Source of the DNA: Rhizodiscina lignyota
Taxonomy: Eukaryota
DNA: 64,000 nt
Assembly (NCBI GenBank): GCA_010015805.1
Contig: ML978136.1
Span: forward strand, 558,001 to 622,000
Direction of reading: 5' to 3'
Below are positions 31,498 to 44,858 of this stretch, in pieces. The notes beneath the pieces were generated by a model. It made no database searches and was not told the DNA's origin. It saw only the letters and a program-made list of their open reading frames with translations. The position numbers and the translations under genes are program-made. The first letter of the stretch is position 1. Every line of letters starts with the position of its first letter.

Positions 31498-34400
31498 ATG
31501 GCCACAGACACGGTACCGCAGACTGGGATACCGCAGACTGGTGTGTCAAGGGTATACGCCGGAATTGGTCCACTCTACCGTATCGCCAATACATCGGAGA
31601 ACAACAACATGCAGGACCAAGTTCATGCGTTCTGTACTGCGATGCAGTCAGTTCCTGTGATTGATGATGGAGCGTACGCGGATAAACTCATACAGGCCGT
31701 GAAGAATTCAACACCTGTAACTGCAATCTCCAAGTATTTCAACGACGTGCAAGACGTCGGACAGACGGATAACAAATTCGATGGCATTGATTGTGGTTCA
31801 ACCATAAACGATTTGGCAGTAGCGAGCACGGCATATGCCCTTTCCGGCGTCACGGACTACAACTTCAATAACGGAATCGACGGGGTAAGGCAGTCCTTTG
31901 ATGGAGCTGCAACACTTGCTAAATTCCTACAGCCCGGTGCACTAGATATGCTGAAGCGCTGCATCACTACGTTGATGCCCGCCATGTACGGCGATCACAT
32001 CAATCAGTGAGTCAGGGCGGTTAGAAATTTGCACCATCGGCTAACTGTAGCAGGCAGCTGGCAAAACTCGGGCAATCAGATCTTCGGGCTTTATCTTCCT
32101 CGCCTAGCTCTGATTTCATAAACGCATATCAGTCAGAGCTGGAGAATCCCAGTGAGCTCTAACGCCGTTGGAAATATAACTTGCACTCACGTTGAAAAGC
32201 ATTCGCCCATTTGGTGAAAATCTATGACGACGCACACAATGGAGGCAATTACGCCCTGAATCTCCTCTTCGCAAACGCGTATCTTCACTATGGCCCTGGA
32301 TTTACAATGTCTTCGAACGTCGATCTAGTGGTTTCTGAGGTCACTCATTGGACCGATATCATCAACAACTGGGTCGAGCAGATGCACGAAGACCAGCAAA
32401 GCCTTCAGGCCGCCAGACCCAATGCTCTGCCGCAGGAATTCGTCCCTCACATCTCATCGGTGTGCGGGCTGAACGGCTACCCAGACGCGCAGGCAACCGA
32501 CCTTGTGACCGCAGTGAGTCAACAGATCCATCCAGAGCTGGATGAATGGAAACTGGGACAAGAGATTCAATATTACCAGACACTGGGGCAGAAGATCATG
32601 GGGGGTTGGGAAGGGAAGAACCAATCGTTCGTGAATGTAGCGAGTACGTCCGTCCAAGCGAATTGGCCCAGTTCCGTCCCACCCTTCGATGAGGCCGACA
32701 ACCCCGGAACGAGTGTCATTAAGACAATGTATCATTATGGTGACGATGCGATGGCATTCGTCAATGCGAACAGGTCTTATAGCTTCCTCGCCAACGAACA
32801 ATCCGGTGACAGAACGAACGTGGTAACTCAGAACGTGGGCATTTTTGGCTCATGTTTCAAGCCTGGCACCAAGGTCCTGACCATTGGAGGAGAGGTCAAC
32901 ATCGAGGACCTGTACGAGAATCTGGAGATTCTCACACGAGGCGGCGACGTGCCTCAGATTGGGATATGTTCCGACGAAAAGGTCATGGTTTCGACGGCTA
33001 GCAGTACAGGGAGCCCCACACATCTCTTCGGATTTAATGATGAATCTCCCTTCTTCACCGCTGGCCATGTGTTCCACACGACTACCGGACTGAGAGCGAT
33101 CTCTCCGCACATAGCAAGAATGGAAAACCCTTGGGTTCAAGTGGGAGAGCTAAGGAAAGGACACACACTTCTACGAACCACCAATGGCAAGACCTATGAG
33201 CAAATTACAATAAGGGCATTCACTGTGTCCCAGGCAGACTGTGACCATGTCTACGGAGTGCATCTTCGCGAAGGCATGCGCAGTTATCACGCCAACGGGT
33301 TCTTGGTTCACCTGAACTACCCTGAGATCACCTTGAAGAGTATCTCAAGGACTTTGCTCACGATACCGTCGAAGGAGAGAATGGGCATGCTATCATGTGT
33401 GCACAATCTCAAGCCATTGTTCGAGCGATTCGGCATCGAAGCGATCTCAGACCTTGTAAACCGCGAGCTCGCTCATCTCAGCACCCTTCCTCCAGCGGCG
33501 CTGAAAACCAGACCTCAGATTTCGAAAACTGGAGGTCTACAGCATGTCACGCGATCTTGGGCGCTGAGGGACACGCGATCGAAACGCGCGGATGGCTTCA
33601 AAGGAGATTTACCAGAGCTTGACGTCTATCAAGGCGTGGTGTACGTCGAATCGAAATACTGCCCAAATGCTCAGATCAAAGAAAACACAATCATCTGGAG
33701 TCGCGATGTTGCCAACGGGACCTGGGAGCATGGATTTGTCAAGTTCGAGAGAGATCTCCTGTTGGGGCATGGCGCAGTTACGTACGGAACAGAAGATGCA
33801 TCCCCCAATGTGCGACATATCGCGAACGTCAGGCGATTCATCGCTGAGCCAAGAGCACGGCGGCCACCTAAGCCCTTGAAGCAGAAGGCGCAAAGTTTCG
33901 CTTCAATCAAGGCTGCCACCAATTCGAAGGAACGCGCAGCACATGTCGCTAGTGCTATCGAACAACTTGACAAGCCGGCTACCACCAGTGGCAATGGGCA
34001 TGCGAAGCCTGTAGTCAAGGTTACGGAGCCTCAGCAGCCAAGTTCTTCTGACCCTCAAAGGGCCGCAACTTCACCTAGCGACGACGATAACGACGACAGC
34101 ACAGCATCCTTCACCCTCATGGACCCGTATAATCTTTCTTACGATACAAGTGATTGGGTTGACGGCCAGGCAACAGCGAAGACGCCTGCAGCTTATCTTC
34201 AAATCTACACTGCGAACGAAAATACGTCACAGCATTTCACATGCAGGATTCCCGATCTCGACACTTTGAGGGACAAAGTATGTGAGAAGCTGCAATCCGA
34301 TCAGAGTATCAAATTGGAAACTGTACCAAACCTGTATGATTGCTTCAACCTCGTGAACGACGACCAGACGGCCAGCTTCTACTTCACTATGAAGTACGCT

Positions 34401-37400
34401 AGCATCATAGCTTCTGCTGCGGACAACTATGATGACAAGAACCCAAAGTATTCGAATCTCACATTCAAGAACCTTGGACTCGACCTGCAGCTTCCGTTCA
34501 TCTTTTCTTCCATGCGCCTTACGCTGAACTGGGATGGTTCGGCGATGAGTGGAATCATTCGGGAGTTTGATCCCACGATGCTGGACGATGATGGGAAGAG
34601 GCATTTTGTGCAAGGCTCCGTTGCCGACGAGGACGTTCCCGCGGAAGTCGTTCGTGCCTTCGTCTCCAAGAACACGGTTGGAAACCAACCAGAAGCTCCG
34701 CTGGCATTGAAGAATTCTGCTCATCTTCCGCCAAAGGCGCCCGCCGTTGCCATGGTGGAGACTGCCGCAAACAGCCTTCCCGACAACTACTCGGATGGCG
34801 CGAAGGAGCTGTCTACTCTTCCGCTTGATAATTCTCAGCTTTCGCAAGATTCGAACTTTTTGCTGTATCTTGCTGCTAAATTCCAAATGAAAGTTGACGA
34901 CCTCAAGACCTTCACTGACGGTGTTAGGCCAATCGAAGGCATGACCAAGGGCCAGCTTCCCGCGGAGCTTGCATCGAATCTCCCTGGTAATCTCGCGACC
35001 TGGCTTCAGGAGGAATACATTCCAGCTTTTATCTCGACGAAAATTATCTCACTAGATCCTTCGGTAAAAGCTGCCTGGAGAATCAACTTTAGCGACATAG
35101 AAACAGGGAAAGTCACCCACTGGTTCAACGGCAAGGGCAAGGGTTGTCTCAGTCAGGTTCCGGAATATACGCAACTGAATGAACTGATGTCGACGTATGC
35201 CACACTTCAAGAGTTCCCACGCATTCAGGACTACCTGAGCGACACAGAACCTGACCCTGTAACCAAAAAAGTTGGTGGCGAGAAGTGGGCTGAGGCTCTA
35301 TACAACTCCCAAGGGAGGAGCTTTGCTCTTGCAGCGATGGCAAATACTACCAATGTTTCAGTAAGTATACTTCCGGAGGTTTATGTATCAGTGACTCATT
35401 GCGATCTAGGGCACGTCAAGAATGCAAGTCATTTGCAACGGTATGTTCGATTCTCTAAACTTCCGGTTAGCATGAAAGGGGGCTAACTAAAGACAGTGTT
35501 GAATACCTTGTCACCAATATATGCAAAGTCGATACAGACTTCACAGACCGCTACTGGTGAAAACAAGGCAGTGACACCGACCGTAAGTTTGTACACTGCG
35601 GTAGCGAGTATTGTTTAACATCAACAGAATCTCCTTCCTAACGATGATAAGCCATACGCCCTGCGTATTGTCGAGGCATTGAAAGCATACAAAGCATCGG
35701 GCTTCCATGCGAGATACATTGGCCTCCAAGACGATACTAACTCCGAGCTCGAGTATCAGTTCTTGAACGACTCGGTGCAAAGCCTCTGGACTGAGCTCCT
35801 ATCGACCGCACCTGGAACGCTTGGAGGAGACCTTGCAAACAGTCTGCAGCAAGATGCTCAAGATTTGGTGACAGAGATGGGCGTCGACGAAAATGAATCA
35901 GCTGCCAATAAGGCGTAAGTAGCTCCCTCCCAGCAAAAGCGAGTGGCACAGATTTCTCAGGCTGCGTTCTTAGTGCGACGATGGCGGCTATTGCCTCAAA
36001 TCTCATTAGAGGGATTGCAGAGGCCTCAAAAGTCATCGGTCCCGCAGTCAAGGGCTTAGCGAAATCATTTCAAGCCGTCCAAACGGCTCTGGATAAGCTG
36101 GAACCCAAAATGGCCAAGATTGGGAAAATTATGGGGCCATGTATGGTCGTTCTAACGGTAGGTCAGCTTTGAATGACACGGAAATCCACACATTCAGCTA
36201 ATGTTTATGCGAAGGCGGCAATGTTTGTATACGCTGCAGTTGGCGCATATCGAGACTGGAGCAATTTGACTCCCACTGAGCGAGCTGTGCTTATTCTCTC
36301 CACGATTCAAACGACCCTACAAACCTTTCAGGATGGGGCAGAAGCTCTGAAGCCTGCCTGGAAGTGGCTGTTCCCAGACAAAGCCCCAGATGTCAGCATT
36401 GCACAGCGAGATGCCTCTTGCGCATCCGCCGAGGAAAATACCCAAACTCGACTGCCGGAAGTTTCTCAGAACTCTCGAAATATTGGCTTACTTACCGATG
36501 AAGAGCTTAATGACAACGCTTCCGCTCTTCCTGGCGGCATTGCCGATGATGAGGCGATGGCTAATCAAGTTGGTGATGACATGGTAGGGGCTGTTGATGG
36601 CGCTGTTAAAGACGGCGTCGAAGTCGCTATTGGCGAAGCAAGTGTGGAGGTGGCCGGATCCATAACGTCAAAGCTCAGCACCATGTTCGCATATTCCACA
36701 CAGGCTGTGAAAGGCCTTCTAGTGGTAGTGGGAGTTGCGGTGACGATTGCAAGTGCTATCAGTCTCGCCCAAAATTGGTCGGACATGGACACCATAGAGC
36801 GCCGGCTCAACATCGCCAACGTGGCAGTGATGGGTATTGCTGCTGTTGCTCCAATACTGTCCGCTGCAATCGAAGCCGGTTGCGTGGCGGCCGGAATAGC
36901 AATTACAGAAGGAACTGTTGCTGCGGGACTGATAGCTGCTTGCTCCTGGGCCGGTCCCCTAATGCTAATTGCGGGTGTAGTGATCGCTTTCCTCATGATG
37001 TTCCACCAGTCCTCGCCAGACCCACCGCCATCTGCACCAGAACAGTGGATACAGGATGTTGGACAGGGATACACCGATGGACTTACGCCGCCTCCAACAT
37101 CGCAATTAACGTGGACTCTAGGTCCTCTGCAAGAACAAGCAACTGTGCAGACGCTTACTGTCACTGGAAAGAACACATCCAGCGACAAAATCACACTGGC
37201 AGACATCGAGATTAAATTCCCAGCGGGCGGCTCGCCGGGCATGCTCTACTCGGAAATGACATTTGCTGCGACCTCCAGCGGCACCGCCGCAACCACTCCT
37301 GGACAAGTCAGTGTAAGCAACACCACAGCAGAGACTCCGGATGTGCAGCTTGCCACCACCAGCGAAGTGGTGGGTAGTGTTGCAGGTACGGCGGCGATAA

Positions 37401-37654
37401 CATGGCTTGCCAAGCTCGTGGGCCCGCAGCCTCCAAATGTAGACAACGACCCGAATAAAGAGCAGCCTCGCGACCTTCTAGTATTCAATCCGGGAGAGCA
37501 GATTCAACTTTCCATAGTTGGAACTGTGGAAGTAAGGGTGCAAGGGCACGATGGGCCATCGATTACGCTTCACGAGGATTGGGTCGACGATAAGAACAAT
37601 CCGTGGGATCAGTGGGAGAATGTGGTGCCGGTATGGGCTCCGACCACGTCGTGA
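31498..37654 (+). CDS. ~1,930-aa protein with an internal Hint (hedgehog/intein) domain and a C-terminal hydrophobic toxin-like region, 8 exons
   Basis: Exons 31498-32006, 32054-32151, 32200-35360, 35410-35440, 35497-35582, 35628-35914, 35974-36157 and 36215-37654 join in frame with GT-AG introns (5796 nt in total). Hint motifs CFKPGTKV, FTAGHVF and YHANGFLVHLN. Confidence 0.82.
32853..33317 (+). other. Hint (intein-like) autoprocessing domain, 155 aa, no homing endonuclease
   Basis: Block A S|CFKPGTKVLTIGG, block B TxxH (FFTAGHVF), blocks F/G VYGVHLREGMRSYHANGFLVHLN|Y. Confidence 0.85.
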
Positions 37655-39894: not shown

Positions 39895-40848
39895 TCATGG
39901 ATAGTTTCTTACGCAATCTAGGCAAATGCTTGCTTCCCTCTTCAAAGTTTCCAGAATTCTAGGAAGCCTTTTGTCATAGCTTTCAGGATCGTGATGATAG
40001 CTAATATAGCTCTCAGGATGGTATTTCCCTTCTATACGTTCGCCTGCAACTTGTCCAATCTTTTCAATGACCTCCGATATAGGAACTTCAAGAATCTTTA
40101 AGGGTCCAAAGTCCTTTCGAAGTGATGCATATTTGTCGGAGCGGTTTTTGCCCCAACCACACGAGCAAGCGGCATCTTCTCCCCTGATTAGCAATTGAGC
40201 TACTTCCGCCCGCTTCTAATAGGTCTGGATAAGTTAGTCATTCTTGCTACTAATTCATCAGAGCTATGACATACGGAATGCTTTCAGAGGTACAATTTTA
40301 CTAGTAAACTCGTCATTCAAGAATTCCAAGTAAGACCCGTTGTAATTAAGGACAAGCGAGAGAGTGTGCGCCATGAATGTGCCGACATCACTAGACAGGA
40401 ATGCCGCTGCCATAAGATATCCCATGTCTACCCTTTCTACATCGATTCTGGGCTTTAGCCCCTGCATATTGGCGAACCTAAGGGCAACGTTAAGATCGTA
40501 TTTATCCGCCACAATAGCGACTTGGAGAACTGCTTTTGGTGTCAAGAATTGCGGCACATCGTCGTTACGATGATGAATAACTCGGCAGATTGTTCGTAAC
40601 GCTTCAGCGTCATCTTCTAGTAGTAAAACTTCCGATGGAGATTTATAGGAAATTCCTTCACCTTCCATCCATTGGGGTCCGAACATGGCACCGAAAACTT
40701 TGGATGCACACCGAAGGCATTGGGAATGAACTCTTAGCCGTACGTGCTGAGGACCGACCACTAAGATAACATCGCCATCTAGAGAAATGTTTATGACCAG
40801 ATTTGAATTGTCGTAAGGCTTCGCGGTGTCTGTGTTTTTGGCTAACAT
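39895..40848 (-). pseudogene. BTB/POZ-domain gene, apparently frameshifted after its intron
   Basis: BTB signature DGDVILVVG..LRVHSQCLRCASKVFGAMFGPQWMEG...LLEDDAEAL..IC.VIH...VADKYD. The C-terminal ICLDCV region (ORF 39895-40194) is out of frame with the acceptors found near the branch site of the intron starting at ~40274. Confidence 0.6.
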
Positions 40849-41044
40849 GGTCGATGCGTCGTTTGTGAATCATGACTATGTCAAGGTAGTTCAACTTCAG
40901 CGCGATCGACGTGCAGCTGACCTCCGGGCCGACCAGGAAGGCATCGCTTAGTCGTCCGACTATCGAGTCATCTTGCCAAGCGCGGCACCAGAAAATTCCA
41001 GCCACGCAACCATGTGAAAAAGCTTGGGTTCTTTCGTAACTCCG

Positions 41045-41448: not shown

Positions 41449-43323
41449 TAAATATGCACTAATGGACCGCCCTATGCAGCGAGAAGCCCTGTGCAGCGAG
41501 AAAATCGATAGGTACTTTGTCCTTAGAGCAATCTCGACTTCGCATATATACCTATTCGCACTTACTTTTGCGTACGTCCTGTGGTTGGGCCGTTTTCCAG
41601 GAACCCTGACATCTCTCGACCGAAAATTACGTTGGCATCGCCGTCTTGTCGCCTGGTTTGCGGAGAGCTTCCTTCTAGTAGCATCACGAGACACATCCAC
41701 TACAGATCCACTATGGACCTCTCATCACTCCTAATAGTCATAGTTTGGCAGTTTCCGAGCCTAGACGACGATTATATTCCAACTCCGCGGATGCTTGCTG
41801 TGAAGACTGGAATTCAGATTGGACCAAATGCATAAATTTGACACCAAAAGTTTGTCAATTTTCTGTTCTCGCCTTCTCGATTCTAGCACGCTCGTTCTCG
41901 ATCGTCGTACTTTCAATATATATTACCCCTTCTCTTACCTCTTACCGCCCCTGTCAATAATTCTTCATGCTTATTATTAAATGGATTCGGCGGCATCGTA
42001 GTTGTCCCACTTCCTGCCCTCAAACAAAGTTGCTTCCCTAACTCGTTCTGCTCACAGAGCACCCGCTGAAACTCTTCTGATCGTTGAAGACTTGATAATC
42101 TTAATGCTGCTAGCCAGAATATGTGATCGCGCATAGGATCGTCTCTGGGATATTGGCATTCAGTAATATCGCGGCATGCAACGGTAAGTAATCTGCAAAG
42201 CTCTCCGGTCTCGAGTGAGTACGCTTGAATTTTGTCGATAAACACTCGAAGGATTGCATCTTGAAAAGTTTGGGCAGCAAGGCGCTCTCCCATTGCATAC
42301 AGCTCCGAGAGGTGTATGAAATCAGAGCCGTTGTTGCAGGCTGGCTTCCAGCCTGGGATATAGAGGAAGTCGGCGAAATGGGAGAAGATATCGGGCGATT
42401 CATCAAGATTAATCTTCAATGATTTTGCTTCCTGAAAACCGCCGGCTAGACCTTTCTCAAATCTTTGTGATGCCTGACAAAGGAGGGAAGAGTGGAGATG
42501 ATATGTCTTCTCTTCTCCAACTTCGATCGCAACGATGCGGGAAGTGAGATAGCTGCTAAGAATTAGAGATTCGGCAAATGAGATGCGCAGCGATTGAGAT
42601 TCTCACTCAGAGTAAATGGGATTATGAGTTTTCCTTTCGCTGACTTGTAATGGAGCAGCAATTAGGCTGTCAAACAGAGCCAGCATTGCGCCAGCCTCGT
42701 CGCTAGTATGGACAACAGCCAGGTTGGGTGAAGCTTTCTCCATGTCGTGTGGTGTAGATTGAATGGCATTTTCAGTATCGTTCGCTTCATCTTGTTCCAT
42801 GGTGGCTTTTGTGCTAAACCTAAAGAAAAGCTGACTGTGAAGCCTAAAGGCTGGAGTTGAGATGCGGTGTAGATTTGCGGGCAAGAGCTAGGTATCTACA
42901 TGACGCAATGAATGAAACACAGAGCTTTGACGCCTGAACGGGCTGACTTGCGGGCTTCTCCCACGACACACGACATCCATCCGGCCCGCTGTGGGATTTT
43001 ACGTTGACTCTGCCAAACGAAACTAGCCCGCAAGAGTCTCTAGAACCTTCTATAGTACGCCACAGTACTGCGCTCGAACCTCTGCAAGCCATTCAGCGCT
43101 AATACGAAAGCATGATAGTGTACTATATAATACATATAATACACAGTCAGCTAAATTTTGCCGATATTGAGTAGTATTCTGTGGAGAAATTGGTCAGAAA
43201 TAGTGCTATATTAAGTAGGATTCCACAAACTCATATGGAAGAGACTTGAGGTACCCGATCTGTGAGCCCATCTCGTTGCATAGGGCTTCTCGTTGCGCAG
43301 GGCGGTCCGTTAGGGCGTATTTA
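41449..43323. repeat. 53-bp imperfect inverted repeat pair (41449-41501 and 43271-43323)
   Basis: taaatatgcactaatggaccgccctatgcagcgagaagccctgtgcagcgaga versus the reverse complement of the right copy, taaatacgccctaacggaccgccctgcgcaacgagaagccctatgcaacgaga: 45/53 identical. Confidence 0.85.
41913..42800 (-). CDS. BTB/POZ-domain protein, 2 exons
   Basis: After an intron at ~42553-42607: YLTSRIVAIEVGEEKTYHLHSSLLCQASQRFEKGLAGGFQEAKSLKINLDESPDIFSHFADFLY...LYAMGERL, the typical fungal BTB pattern. Confidence 0.78.
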
Positions 43324-43493: not shown

Positions 43494-44273
43494 CTATTGT
43501 CCTGCAATCGGCAGTACCATCTGCGTCTCCGTGACTTGCTTCTTTCTGACGTACCGGATCGTTTCACGAACTCTGCGACCACCTTCGACGAATGAATACT
43601 TTGCGTTGATGCGATGGTACCCGTTGAGCCGAGGGAGAAGATCCAGACCTTTGCGCGCATTTTCGTTCATGCTGATCTGGTGGACGATATGAAGGAGTGT
43701 GTGGCCGTTACATGACTGCGTGAGAGTAGCACAATCAGCCGTACTTCTCAATATCTCCAGTATGGTGCTTACGGCCGAGTCAAGAAGGATTCGGGGAGAA
43801 ATGAGCCCAAAGATGAAGTTAGCCTTTTCAATACGGAGGTCGAGATAGACAGTGAACGGTGTTGGTTTGGAGCCGTCCACTACGAATGCCGACATAAGTG
43901 TCAGGTGCCGAATATTGGTTGTGAGCTCGTTGGTTCTGATAGCAGCCCAGCGAGCACTAGGTAGGAATTCAATTCCATCCAAATCTTTCGAGAGGATCAT
44001 CAAAGAGAAGATTCGCTGACTGAAGGACAGGCAAAGGCTCTCCTGTCGACAGAGTTTATTCACACGCGTGATCGCCTCATGCTTTAGGGTATCGCGATGT
44101 CGGCTAGGTCCCTCAAGGCATACCGTGCTTCGCCCGGTTACGAGCTTGTAAATCATAGTACGAATTTCTAGGGGCAAGTCTAGAAACCTGAAAGGTTGTG
44201 AAGGTTGTGCGACTGAGGTTGAGAGAGTCGACACCTCCGAGCTTGAGCGTCGGCCTGCCATCTGAGGCCTCAT
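43494..44273 (-). CDS. F-box-like/2EXR-like fungal protein
   Basis: QPFRFLDLPLEIRTMIY and AITRVNKLCRQESL. Likely start is MRPQMAG at 44273. Confidence 0.68.
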   Translation of the reverse strand: MRPQMAGRRSSSEVSTLSTSVAQPSQPFRFLDLPLEIRTMIYKLVTGRSTVCLEGPSRHRDTLKHEAITRVNKLCRQESLCLSFSQRIFSLMILSKDLDGIEFLPSARWAAIRTNELTTNIRHLTLMSAFVVDGSKPTPFTVYLDLRIEKANFIFGLISPRILLDSAVSTILEILRSTADCATLTQSCNGHTLLHIVHQISMNENARKGLDLLPRLNGYHRINAKYSFVEGGRRVRETIRYVRKKQVTETQMVLPIAGQ

Positions 44274-44858
44274 GGTTGCTGTGTTGAAAGAGAATTCTAG
44301 ATTGACTTTCAAGCTTGGTTCTTGATATGGTAATAATGTGTGAAGTGTGCTTGATCCGTGGTAGCTGAAATAGCGAGAACATGTGAGGTGACGAAGTGTG
44401 AATTGCATTGTCAGTGTTGGAAAAAGTGAGCTTAAATTGAACAAGTGAAAAACTAAACACAAACAAAGACAATCCATATAGACCGTAGTTGTGGTAATGT
44501 ATTGATAACAACGATACATAAGTTTTTGCTGAATGGAGAAAGATGCGCTCGGGCAGCCGGAGCGTACCTAATGAACGTATTACGCATTACCAATATCTGT
44601 CTCATGACAATAAGATGTCGATTGCCGAATAACACATTATCCTAACCACCAACAAGGCGTGACACCGCCTTCAGTGTTTCATTCTGATATCGAACTGACA
44701 ATCCATGAAGCTCATGAAATCCCACATTCTTCATTGGTATGAGGGTTCGATATTCCGTGCTTGACTAATGGATGTGTGGCGTATAGTGGCGATTTAGAAA
44801 GCGTCAAGAAAATCCCACCGCCGGGTTCTCACATCCCGTTCATCCTCTTTGAGGGCTC

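Follow-up and report, generated by a model that had tools for sequence, protein, structure and literature searches.

A complete intein-like Hint domain in a large, putatively self-processing and membrane-anchored protein of Rhizodiscina lignyota

What a Hint domain does within a fungal protein of about 1900 residues is the question raised by a gene of Rhizodiscina lignyota, located at 31498-37654 (+ strand) of a 64,000-nucleotide stretch of contig ML978136.1 (assembly GCA_010015805.1, positions 558,001 to 622,000), hereafter referred to as the window. An earlier note on this DNA had taken the gene product for an autoproteolytically activated, membrane-attacking or cell-death effector with a polymorphic-toxin-like architecture. 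The present analysis identifies a complete Hint domain at residues 405-559, which is intein-like and resembles the type A bacterial intein-like (BIL) domains. It leans towards a self-processing (self-cleaving), membrane-anchored protein of a large, conserved and unstudied family, in which release of the N-terminal domain (N-domain) would be the likely event.

The Hint domain extends from Cys405 to Asn559 (155 aa; 32853-33317, +) in the numbering of the deposited protein, as evident from translation, profile, fold and conservation, and is the same domain that had been placed at residues 421-575, beginning with Cys421, in the earlier numbering. The Hint fold proposed at that time is faint in Pfam and clear in the profile, model and fold searches. 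The Pfam match of this protein to Hint_2 has an E-value of 0.013-0.027 over 44 residues, which is under the cut-off. Among the relatives, Hint_2 is matched by 7 of 19 proteins at E ≤0.001 and by 22 of 27 at E ≤0.05, the matches being always restricted to the first 30-45 model positions, and three proteins alone pass Pfam's own threshold. A profile of 51 sequences searched against the PDB retrieved the BIL domain of Clostridium thermocellum (2LWY) at E 3.2e-06, followed by inteins and Hedgehog, 2LWY being the only significant match among solved structures. A single-sequence search of the PDB gave no match, and the profile of the whole family retrieved the BIL domain alone, besides helical matches put down to chance (E ≥0.065). 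A phmmer search matched the Hint region to a Mucilaginibacter protein (E 5.7e-28), the repeats of which are strong Pfam Hint matches.

The AlphaFold model of residues 395-725 has a mean predicted local distance difference test (pLDDT) score of 85.9, exceeding 90 across the Hint domain. Foldseek aligned the modelled Hint domain to BIL2 of Tetrahymena (6y75; E 1.1e-08, template modelling score 0.77 on the target) and also to BIL domains, mini-inteins and Hedgehog; among the matches listed, every one with E ≤0.001 is an intein, a BIL domain or Hedgehog. An aligner independent of Foldseek also placed Tetrahymena BIL2 (6tmm) at the top (Z 16.4, root-mean-square deviation (rmsd) 3.0, 141 residues aligned), and 28 of 28 chains with Z ≥8 are Hint folds. 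The structural alignments stop at model residues 163-175, mostly 164-168, and Asn559 is model residue 165.

The Hint residues comprise Cys405 (Cys1), Thr473-Ala-Gly-His476 of block B, His541, His550 and the terminal Asn559, which is followed by Tyr560 at the +1 position and by Pro561. In the alignment of 46 full-length proteins, Cys405 is kept in 41, Thr473 and His476 in 42 each, Asn559 in 44 and Tyr560 in 40, and Pro561 is invariant (46/46). Cys, Thr, His and Asn are all present in 36 proteins, this one included, and three more differ just by the replacement of Thr with Ser. In four sequences Cys1 is changed (to Tyr, Tyr, Leu and Val), and in these the block B His and His541 are gone too, although Asn559 is kept; the correlated losses suggest that Cys1, the block B His and His541 form a working set in the other sequences. 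The Hint domain is furthermore the best conserved segment of the protein, with a median identity of 52% as against 16-30% elsewhere. Since the Hint fold is complete and the catalytic residues are kept, autoprocessing is a fair expectation, and the domain is probably active, judging from its sequence and model. The relatives with a dead Hint domain are P0049 (Fusarium decemcellulare), P0063 (Penicillium hispanicum), P0096 (Xylona heveae) and P0085, all with whole architecture; three of these form one supported clade with P0044 (Paramyrothecium foliicola), in which Cys1 is kept and Ser replaces Asn559.

The beta-fold, the N-terminal nucleophile Cys405 and the TxxH motif of block B place the domain in the Hint superfamily. 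Canonical class 1 inteins end in His-Asn followed by Cys, Ser or Thr at +1, and their hosts also exist without the insert; here the junction reads Leu-Asn559-Tyr560, and none of the 46 full-length relatives is without the Hint domain. Asn559 is preceded by Leu or Val in the family (Leu in this protein) rather than the usual His, a His is found two positions ahead of the terminal Asn in 14/46 relatives, and a +1 nucleophile occurs solely in P0085 (Ser) and P0128 (Thr). The features of type A BIL domains fit more closely: Cys1, the Asn and a non-nucleophilic +1 residue are present, the penultimate His is absent, and the best sequence match is a BIL domain. The C. thermocellum type A BIL domain (2LWY) has Cys1, the terminal Asn and the lack of a +1 nucleophile in common with the present domain (Z 14.8, rmsd 2.6, 131 residues aligned). 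The two differ in the residue before the Asn, which is Leu or Val here and not His, and in the host, which is conserved and eukaryotic here and variable and bacterial in the case of type A BIL domains.

Type A BIL domains give mainly cleavage products, as described in sections of Mills, Johnson and Perler (2014, PMC4031507), and the Magnetospirillum BIL domain treated there, which carries Tyr at +1 as does the present protein, spliced only once Cys had replaced the Tyr. Cleavage is therefore expected over classical splicing, in view of the Tyr at +1. The same sections allow splicing of type A BIL domains without a +1 nucleophile, and the family carries a full intein-type residue set at both ends of the domain. 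A fixed mini-intein-like element, in which the Hint domain is excised and its flanks are joined by a nucleophile-free route to a product of ~1760 aa, could be built on these two points. Against such splicing stand the Tyr at +1 in 40/46 sequences, the dominance of cleavage among type A BIL domains and the failure of the Tyr+1 domain to splice (PMC4031507), together with the lack of any full-length relative without the insert and the retention of the domain in place in relatives with a dead nucleophile. A selfish intein would sit at a conserved site of its host, whereas here the Hint domain is the best conserved part and its N-flank is poorly conserved; excision with joining of the flanks appears very unlikely. 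The earlier view that this is no housekeeping intein stands, as does the lack of an endonuclease in a domain of 155 aa.

In the favoured self-cleaving reading, and by analogy with established Hint chemistry, Cys405 would attack the Ser404-Cys405 peptide bond to form a thioester, the resolution of which by water or another nucleophile would free an N-terminal domain of ~44 kDa from the membrane-tethered remainder. Asn559 may also cyclise, cutting between Asn559 and Tyr560. The direction of release is suggested by a bacterial relative, an open frame homologous to the fungal protein on contig DATHBF010000238.1 of a Pyrinomonadaceae (acidobacterial) metagenome-assembled genome (L001:2-1513, +), the 5' side of which is cut by the contig end. 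The frame comprises at least 290 upstream residues, GGGCF, a Hint domain of the same subtype, an Asn-Tyr-Pro junction and about 50 tail residues before the stop, and aligns to residues 357-610 of the present protein with 31% identity (E 7e-35). Of its upstream part, just about 45 residues before the Cys are related to the fungal N-domain, and its neighbours and base composition look bacterial. Hint domain and tail thus appear, from these sequences, to be an older unit able to sit at the C-terminus of a protein. As the bacterial frame ends about 50 residues past the Hint domain, a Hedgehog-like layout, release of the upstream domain is favoured.

The fungal post-Hint tail (aa 560-636; 33318-33548, +) consists of the NYPEIT junction and four helices, as seen in the consensus and in model helices 171-227. 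It is conserved along with the Hint domain, and its first ~50 residues are also those found in the bacterial homologue. It is followed by a small beta-barrel-like domain (aa 637-716; 33549-33788, +; model strands 243-322, pLDDT about 92), for which structural matches reach Z ≤6.0 only, with avidin-like and other small barrels, a background level that also holds for the match to an avidin (Z 5.4, rmsd 2.7, 74 residues aligned).

The Hedgehog/Hog domains (1AT0, 6TYY) share with the present domain the Hint fold (Z 13.1, rmsd 2.6, 129 residues aligned), a small residue-Cys-Phe cut site, a conserved helical stretch past the Hint domain and an upstream domain as the likely product. The junction before Cys1 reads G-[SGT]-C-F in the family and resembles the Hedgehog cut site, which is G-C-F. 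The identity is 8-13%, however, and Hedgehog-type Hint domains lack the terminal Asn and belong to secreted precursors, whereas the present protein has no signal peptide, its family keeps Asn559 in 44/46 members, and a further 1200 residues with membrane helices lie downstream. The nearest solved structure is BIL2 of BUBL1 from Tetrahymena thermophila (6Y75, 6TMM), likewise a eukaryotic, non-mobile Hint domain with Cys1 and a terminal Asn, which processes its own flanks. Its identity to the present domain is 16-19%, and BIL2 lies between small ubiquitin-like domains, of which it ligates the upstream one to lysines without ATP, according to passages of PMC8616854. Here, a domain of 404 aa that belongs to no known family lies on one side and a membrane-anchored part of 1356 aa on the other, and no ubiquitin-like domain was found by Pfam in this protein or its relatives.

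These likenesses permit a reading in which a chosen nucleophile (sterol, lipid or protein lysine) takes over the N-domain in the manner of Hedgehog or BUBL, the tail and the barrel serving in adduct recognition. The closeness to BIL2, the junction before Cys1, the occurrence of Hint domain and tail as one unit from bacterium to fungi, which parallels the Hedgehog layout of Hint domain and sterol-recognition region, and the weak barrel resemblance to small ligand-binding barrels would agree with it. The retention of a terminal Asn that is absent from Hedgehog-type Hint domains, barrel matches at background level, the lack of a signal peptide and hence of a Hedgehog-like secretory route, and the fact that nothing points to a nucleophile make such a transfer unlikely. 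Vint proteins (VWA-Vwaint-Vint, 8R2C) also contain a eukaryotic, non-intein Hint-like domain (Z 9.4, rmsd 3.0, 120 residues aligned), but neither this protein nor the 46 family-type proteins have a VWA or Vint Pfam match.

The assignment of the Hint domain and its flanks to one protein follows from the gene model. Open reading frames (ORFs) and intron joints define a single multi-exon gene on the + strand from start to stop codon, in which five open pieces (31498-32010, 32196-35486 of 1096 aa, 35619-35918, 35912-36172 and 36173-37654) are linked in frame by GT-AG introns of 44-59 nt. Among 5.8 billion proteins searched, P0157, the Rhizodiscina lignyota hypothetical protein NA57DRAFT_80979 of 1915 aa, matches 97% of the big exon with 99% identity. 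Its deposited model has nine exons (31498-31884, 31933-32006, 32054-32151, 32200-35360, 35410-35440, 35497-35582, 35628-35914, 35974-36157 and 36215-37654, all +), the joining of which gives P0157 exactly, letter for letter. The eight exons and ~1931 aa described in the earlier note correspond to an alternative model of 1932 aa, in which 48 nt (31885-31932) are retained and one residue is changed at the exon 1/2 joint; its single + strand gene stands, and its exon count gives way to the deposited one. In tblastn, three homologues cross the 48-nt spot in exon 1 with 16-17 fewer residues, which suggests that the deposited 48-nt in-frame intron is the better reading. The single sequencing run that contains the stretch is a near-identical genomic contig, probably the source assembly, in which no exon joints are seen.

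All seven full-length homologues compared by tblastn are collinear on the exons of the window, the N-terminal exons being matched by three of them and the last exon by five, and the large-exon match of P0001 starts upstream of the large exon. The collinearity indicates that the exons form one gene, and the possibility that they belong to separate genes, raised along with the first description, falls away. The micro-exon at 35410-35440 (31 nt, between introns of 49 and 56 nt) has the deposited model and the reading frame alone as its basis; a single 132-nt intron at 35361-35492 would also remain in frame and give a protein shorter by 9 aa, and the family alignment is gappy here. Antisense open frames inside the gene, at 34227-35048 (-; 273 aa) and 36565-37245 (-; 226 aa), are taken for by-products of the codon make-up of the sense strand.

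The N-domain (aa 1-404; 31498-32852, +) is encoded across three introns and ends with Gly403-Ser404 just before the Hint Cys. Beyond the barrel, a variable and probably disordered linker (aa 717-855; 33789-34205, +), which is of low occupancy (filled in 27/45) and low pLDDT, leads to an alpha/beta domain (aa 856-993; 34206-34619, +; model residues 16-153, pLDDT about 90-96) and to a helical domain (aa 1033-1270; 34737-35582, +; model residues 193-430, pLDDT about 90-97), which spans two short introns and carries conserved motifs in the family consensus, among them YHM, TYxPAY and YFWxGxG. These model residues refer to a second model, of residues 841-1915, with a mean pLDDT of 72.2, in which a disordered acidic stretch is seen at 1510-1598. 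The C-terminal part forms a beta-sandwich of the fn3/immunoglobulin (Ig)-like type (aa 1735-1906; 37109-37624, +; strands with pLDDT 80-96), in agreement with the beta-rich tail of ~200 aa described before. Its structural matches are Ig-like (Z ≤8.8), and the Pfam fn3 match of a Volvox homologue falls on aa 1731-1887 of this protein.

Outside the Hint domain, neither Pfam nor NCBIfam recognises a family in this protein, and about 1700 of the ~1900 residues match no known family. The ESM Atlas gave no usable match for residues 1-400 or 845-1275, and Foldseek returned nothing at E ≤0.001 for the 841-1915 model. VIA gave Z ≤9.6 for the same model, with vinculin-like four-helix bundles, I-BAR-like helices and Ig-like sandwiches, all within background. 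As the region 856-1270 was barely sampled by VIA, no new fold is claimed for it, even with no fold match for 856-993.

Hydropathy marks three segments, at 1424-1449, 1597-1624 and 1633-1703, in P0157 as well as in the family average. The first corresponds to a helix at aa 1419-1448 (36104-36250, +; model helix 579-608), which is split by the last intron (36158-36214). The other two make up the long Ala/Gly/Val/Ile-rich block noticed earlier, now placed at aa 1597-1703 (36695-37015, +; 62% A/G/V/I/L, model helices with pLDDT 62-72), which from its sequence would be long enough for three or four membrane helices. No hydrophobic stretch lies ahead of residue ~1424, so that no signal peptide is apparent by hydropathy, as had been stated before, and lysines precede the first segment. 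These two features suggest that the ~1420 N-terminal residues are cytosolic and that the protein has a polytopic anchor. The layout would accordingly run from ~1420 cytosolic residues through the hydrophobic helices (1419-1448 and 1597-1703) to the fn3-like tail; with an even number of membrane crossings by the block, counted after the first helix, the beta-sandwich would be outside. The block would suit an ordinary membrane anchor no less than a membrane-attacking element.

The conservation of these parts was examined by profile iterations from segments of this protein within 45 relatives. The middle segment and residues 1560-1915 were recovered in 45/45, the tail at 1700-1915 in 41/45 and the N-domain in 39/45, with E-values that refer to the 45-sequence set and with a C-terminal score that the hydrophobic block may boost. 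The segments not recovered belong to the Volvox-type clade and, in the case of the N-domain alone, also to P0202. Recovery across the family indicates that the post-Hint part is a conserved body and not a swappable cassette, and the N-domain varies more than the C-terminal parts, unlike polymorphic toxins, in which variable toxin domains at the C-terminus are joined to a conserved N-terminal body.

These results bear directly on the toxin proposal that goes back to the earlier note: Hint autoproteolysis would release the post-Hint part, with its hydrophobic block, to act on membranes of competitors or of the fungal cell itself, in antagonism, allorecognition or cell death. The PT-HINT (PF07591) polymorphic toxins do resemble the present protein in having a Hint domain inside a long protein, ahead of a releasable C-terminal part. 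As described in parts of the work of the Aravind group (PMC3417536, PMC3239186), the Hint domain acts there as a releasing peptidase, in bacterial polymorphic toxins and not in fungal proteins. The intact Hint domain, the conserved block of small and hydrophobic residues, and a taxonomy-discordant tree with two copies in some genomes, as for many conflict genes, would suit a toxin. Sub-threshold Pfam matches to viroporin, holin and the TcdA/TcdB pore region (E 0.0016-0.013) would suit it as well, but each occurs in 1 of 27 proteins, and they are spread over different families, as expected from composition.

Against the polymorphic-toxin-like architecture stand the 1356 aa past the Hint domain, which are long and conserved rather than polymorphic. 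No PT-HINT match is present in the 46 family-type proteins (19 searched at E 0.001 and 27 at E 0.05), PF07591 being matched just by two Bacteroidota multi-Hint proteins, P0116 and P0150. Pfam, NCBIfam, the profile search of the PDB, Foldseek and VIA detected neither a domain for secretion or trafficking nor the fold of a toxin or pore-former, the structural matches being to generic helical bundles and Ig-like folds. No secretion-linked N-domain is seen, no immunity gene was recognised among the neighbours in the window, and the bacterial homologue is without any C-terminal cargo. A membrane-attacking or cell-death effector thus finds no support in the form of a toxin fold, PT-HINT, a secretion signal or a recognisable immunity gene, and the release of a toxin is considered improbable.

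The gene lies among ordinary neighbours: an amino-acid permease, a short-chain dehydrogenase and a GH13-like gene are found upstream of it, and the downstream side has two ORFs with BTB/POZ domains, one with 2EXR, a fungal transcription factor and GH30. The gene had been placed at the edge of an accessory block rich in transposable elements and repeat-induced point mutation (RIP); this is not borne out, since the only AT-richer patch is limited to 38-42 kb, just downstream of the gene (GC 0.43-0.44, TpA/ApT 0.92-1.03, borderline RIP indices), and no transposase, reverse-transcriptase, tyrosine-recombinase or other transposon domain was found in the 34 ORF translations scanned, two of which come from reading frames that overlap at 5.7-6.5 kb. 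A Starship or transposon setting was rejected on the same scan. The ORFs at 40264-40869 (-), 41913-42602 (-) and 43494-44567 (-) are the two BTB/POZ and one 2EXR/DUF7730, past the AT-richer patch.

The family is large and widely distributed. Library matches number 528 at E ≤0.001, 298 at 1e-10 and 103 at E ≤1e-30, the library entries being representatives of 50%-identity clusters. Family proteins are about 1700-2080 aa long, and the architecture is collinear in at least 45 relatives from Ascomycota, Galerina and Volvox. Named members belong to Dothideomycetes, Sordariomycetes, Leotiomycetes, Eurotiomycetes, Lecanoromycetes, Orbiliomycetes and Xylonomycetes, and many plant-associated and soil fungi, such as Fusarium, Trichoderma, Colletotrichum and Zasmidium, carry the family. 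Members outside the ascomycetes are the basidiomycete Galerina and Volvox reticuliferus, in both male and female assemblies, so that the family is not confined to fungi. The Hint domain and tail of the Volvox protein are 36% identical to those of this protein and 33-36% to those of others, and the middle and the membrane region are shared as well. Its entry P0064 (1644 aa) is built like the rest of the family, with an fn3 tail that Pfam recognises and an N-domain that is either another one or strongly diverged, and groups with four transcript-like entries, P0085, P0105, P0128 and P0140. A search with the middle domain among proteins of 220-700 aa gave two short fungal entries alone (Pseudocercospora and Paraphoma), which are probably partial models.

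A quickly built maximum-likelihood tree of Hint domain and tail (321 columns for 46 rows, of which 6 are without a name) departs from taxonomy. Accommodating the 8 Dothideomycetes takes 8 label changes, of which starred branches force at least 6, and all groups together require 19 label changes against a minimum of 8. Short-branched pairs across classes, with support of 99 each, are formed by Nemania and Lasiodiplodia and by Polyplosphaeria and a Fusarium oxysporum copy, and some genomes carry two family copies. Penicillium and Fusarium decemcellulare make a further cross-class pair, and Galerina is nested among the ascomycetes. The cross-class pairs may reflect gene transfer or assembly contamination, and the tree conflict fits old paralogy with loss, or transfer, alike. 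A distribution so patchy and at odds with taxonomy suggests that the role is accessory and not one of housekeeping.

The members are labelled hypothetical or, automatically, 'Hint domain-containing'. The literature searched contains no paper that treats the family or any of six of its locus tags, which supports the earlier view of an undescribed system; the supplements of PMC5784728, an intein survey that covers eukaryotic Hint proteins, may already list some of its members. The records of P0162, P0163, P0085, P0105, P0128 and P0033 are slightly longer than three times the protein in nucleotides (e.g. 1829 aa and 6323 nt). Records of the P0162 type resemble assembled transcripts, and if they are, the relatives would be expressed as one long mRNA.

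Several observations weigh against a self-cleaving and membrane-anchored protein. The Leu or Val in place of His before Asn559 suggests that C-terminal cleavage may be slow or absent, and the strict Tyr-Pro-Glu-Ile-Thr that follows Asn559 could mark a junction that is structural and never cut. The four dead-Hint relatives retain the full architecture, which suggests that an uncut protein can be selected for. The bacterial homologue, so far as its sequence extends, is truncated at the contig end and derives from a metagenome bin. Membrane insertion is predicted from hydropathy and from a model with pLDDT 50-72, and the hydrophobic region could instead be a buried hairpin of a soluble protein.

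Part of the same evidence would agree with a Hint domain that undergoes no processing and has a purely structural or binding part to play within a large membrane protein, namely the clade of relatives that keeps the whole protein without Cys1 and the block B His, and the missing penultimate His. Since all four catalytic residues are kept in 36/46 proteins, however, and the losses are correlated and restricted to few sequences, selection on catalysis is indicated elsewhere in the family, and a module free of any processing is highly improbable. Self-cleavage with release of the N-domain from a membrane anchor thus remains the reading to which the evidence leans.

A more far-reaching proposal is that fungi and volvocine algae own a Hedgehog-like system, in which a BIL-type Hint domain, along with its conserved tail and barrel, would cut the 44-kDa cytosolic domain from the membrane-anchored protein and pass it to a specific nucleophile (lipid, sterol or protein). 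Once free, this domain would serve as a signal or as a switch of cell fate, and the gene would move between distant fungi, as hinted at by the discordant tree; this is put forward as a speculation of low probability. According to passages of Burglin (2008, PMC2362128), no Hog domain occurred in the ascomycetes and basidiomycetes sequenced by then and Vint proteins were present in some fungi, and sections of Green et al. (2018, PMC5784728) give the function of most eukaryotic Hint proteins as unknown. Four eukaryotic Hint groups are recognised, namely inteins, Hedgehog/Hog, Vint and the ciliate BUBL, and the family described here would be a further large group, which stands out for its intact catalytic residues and for a Hint domain embedded in a conserved membrane protein of ~1900 aa. 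If cleavage takes place, fungi would be using Hint chemistry for the regulated release of a domain, and the paralogues with a dead Hint domain would be natural controls.

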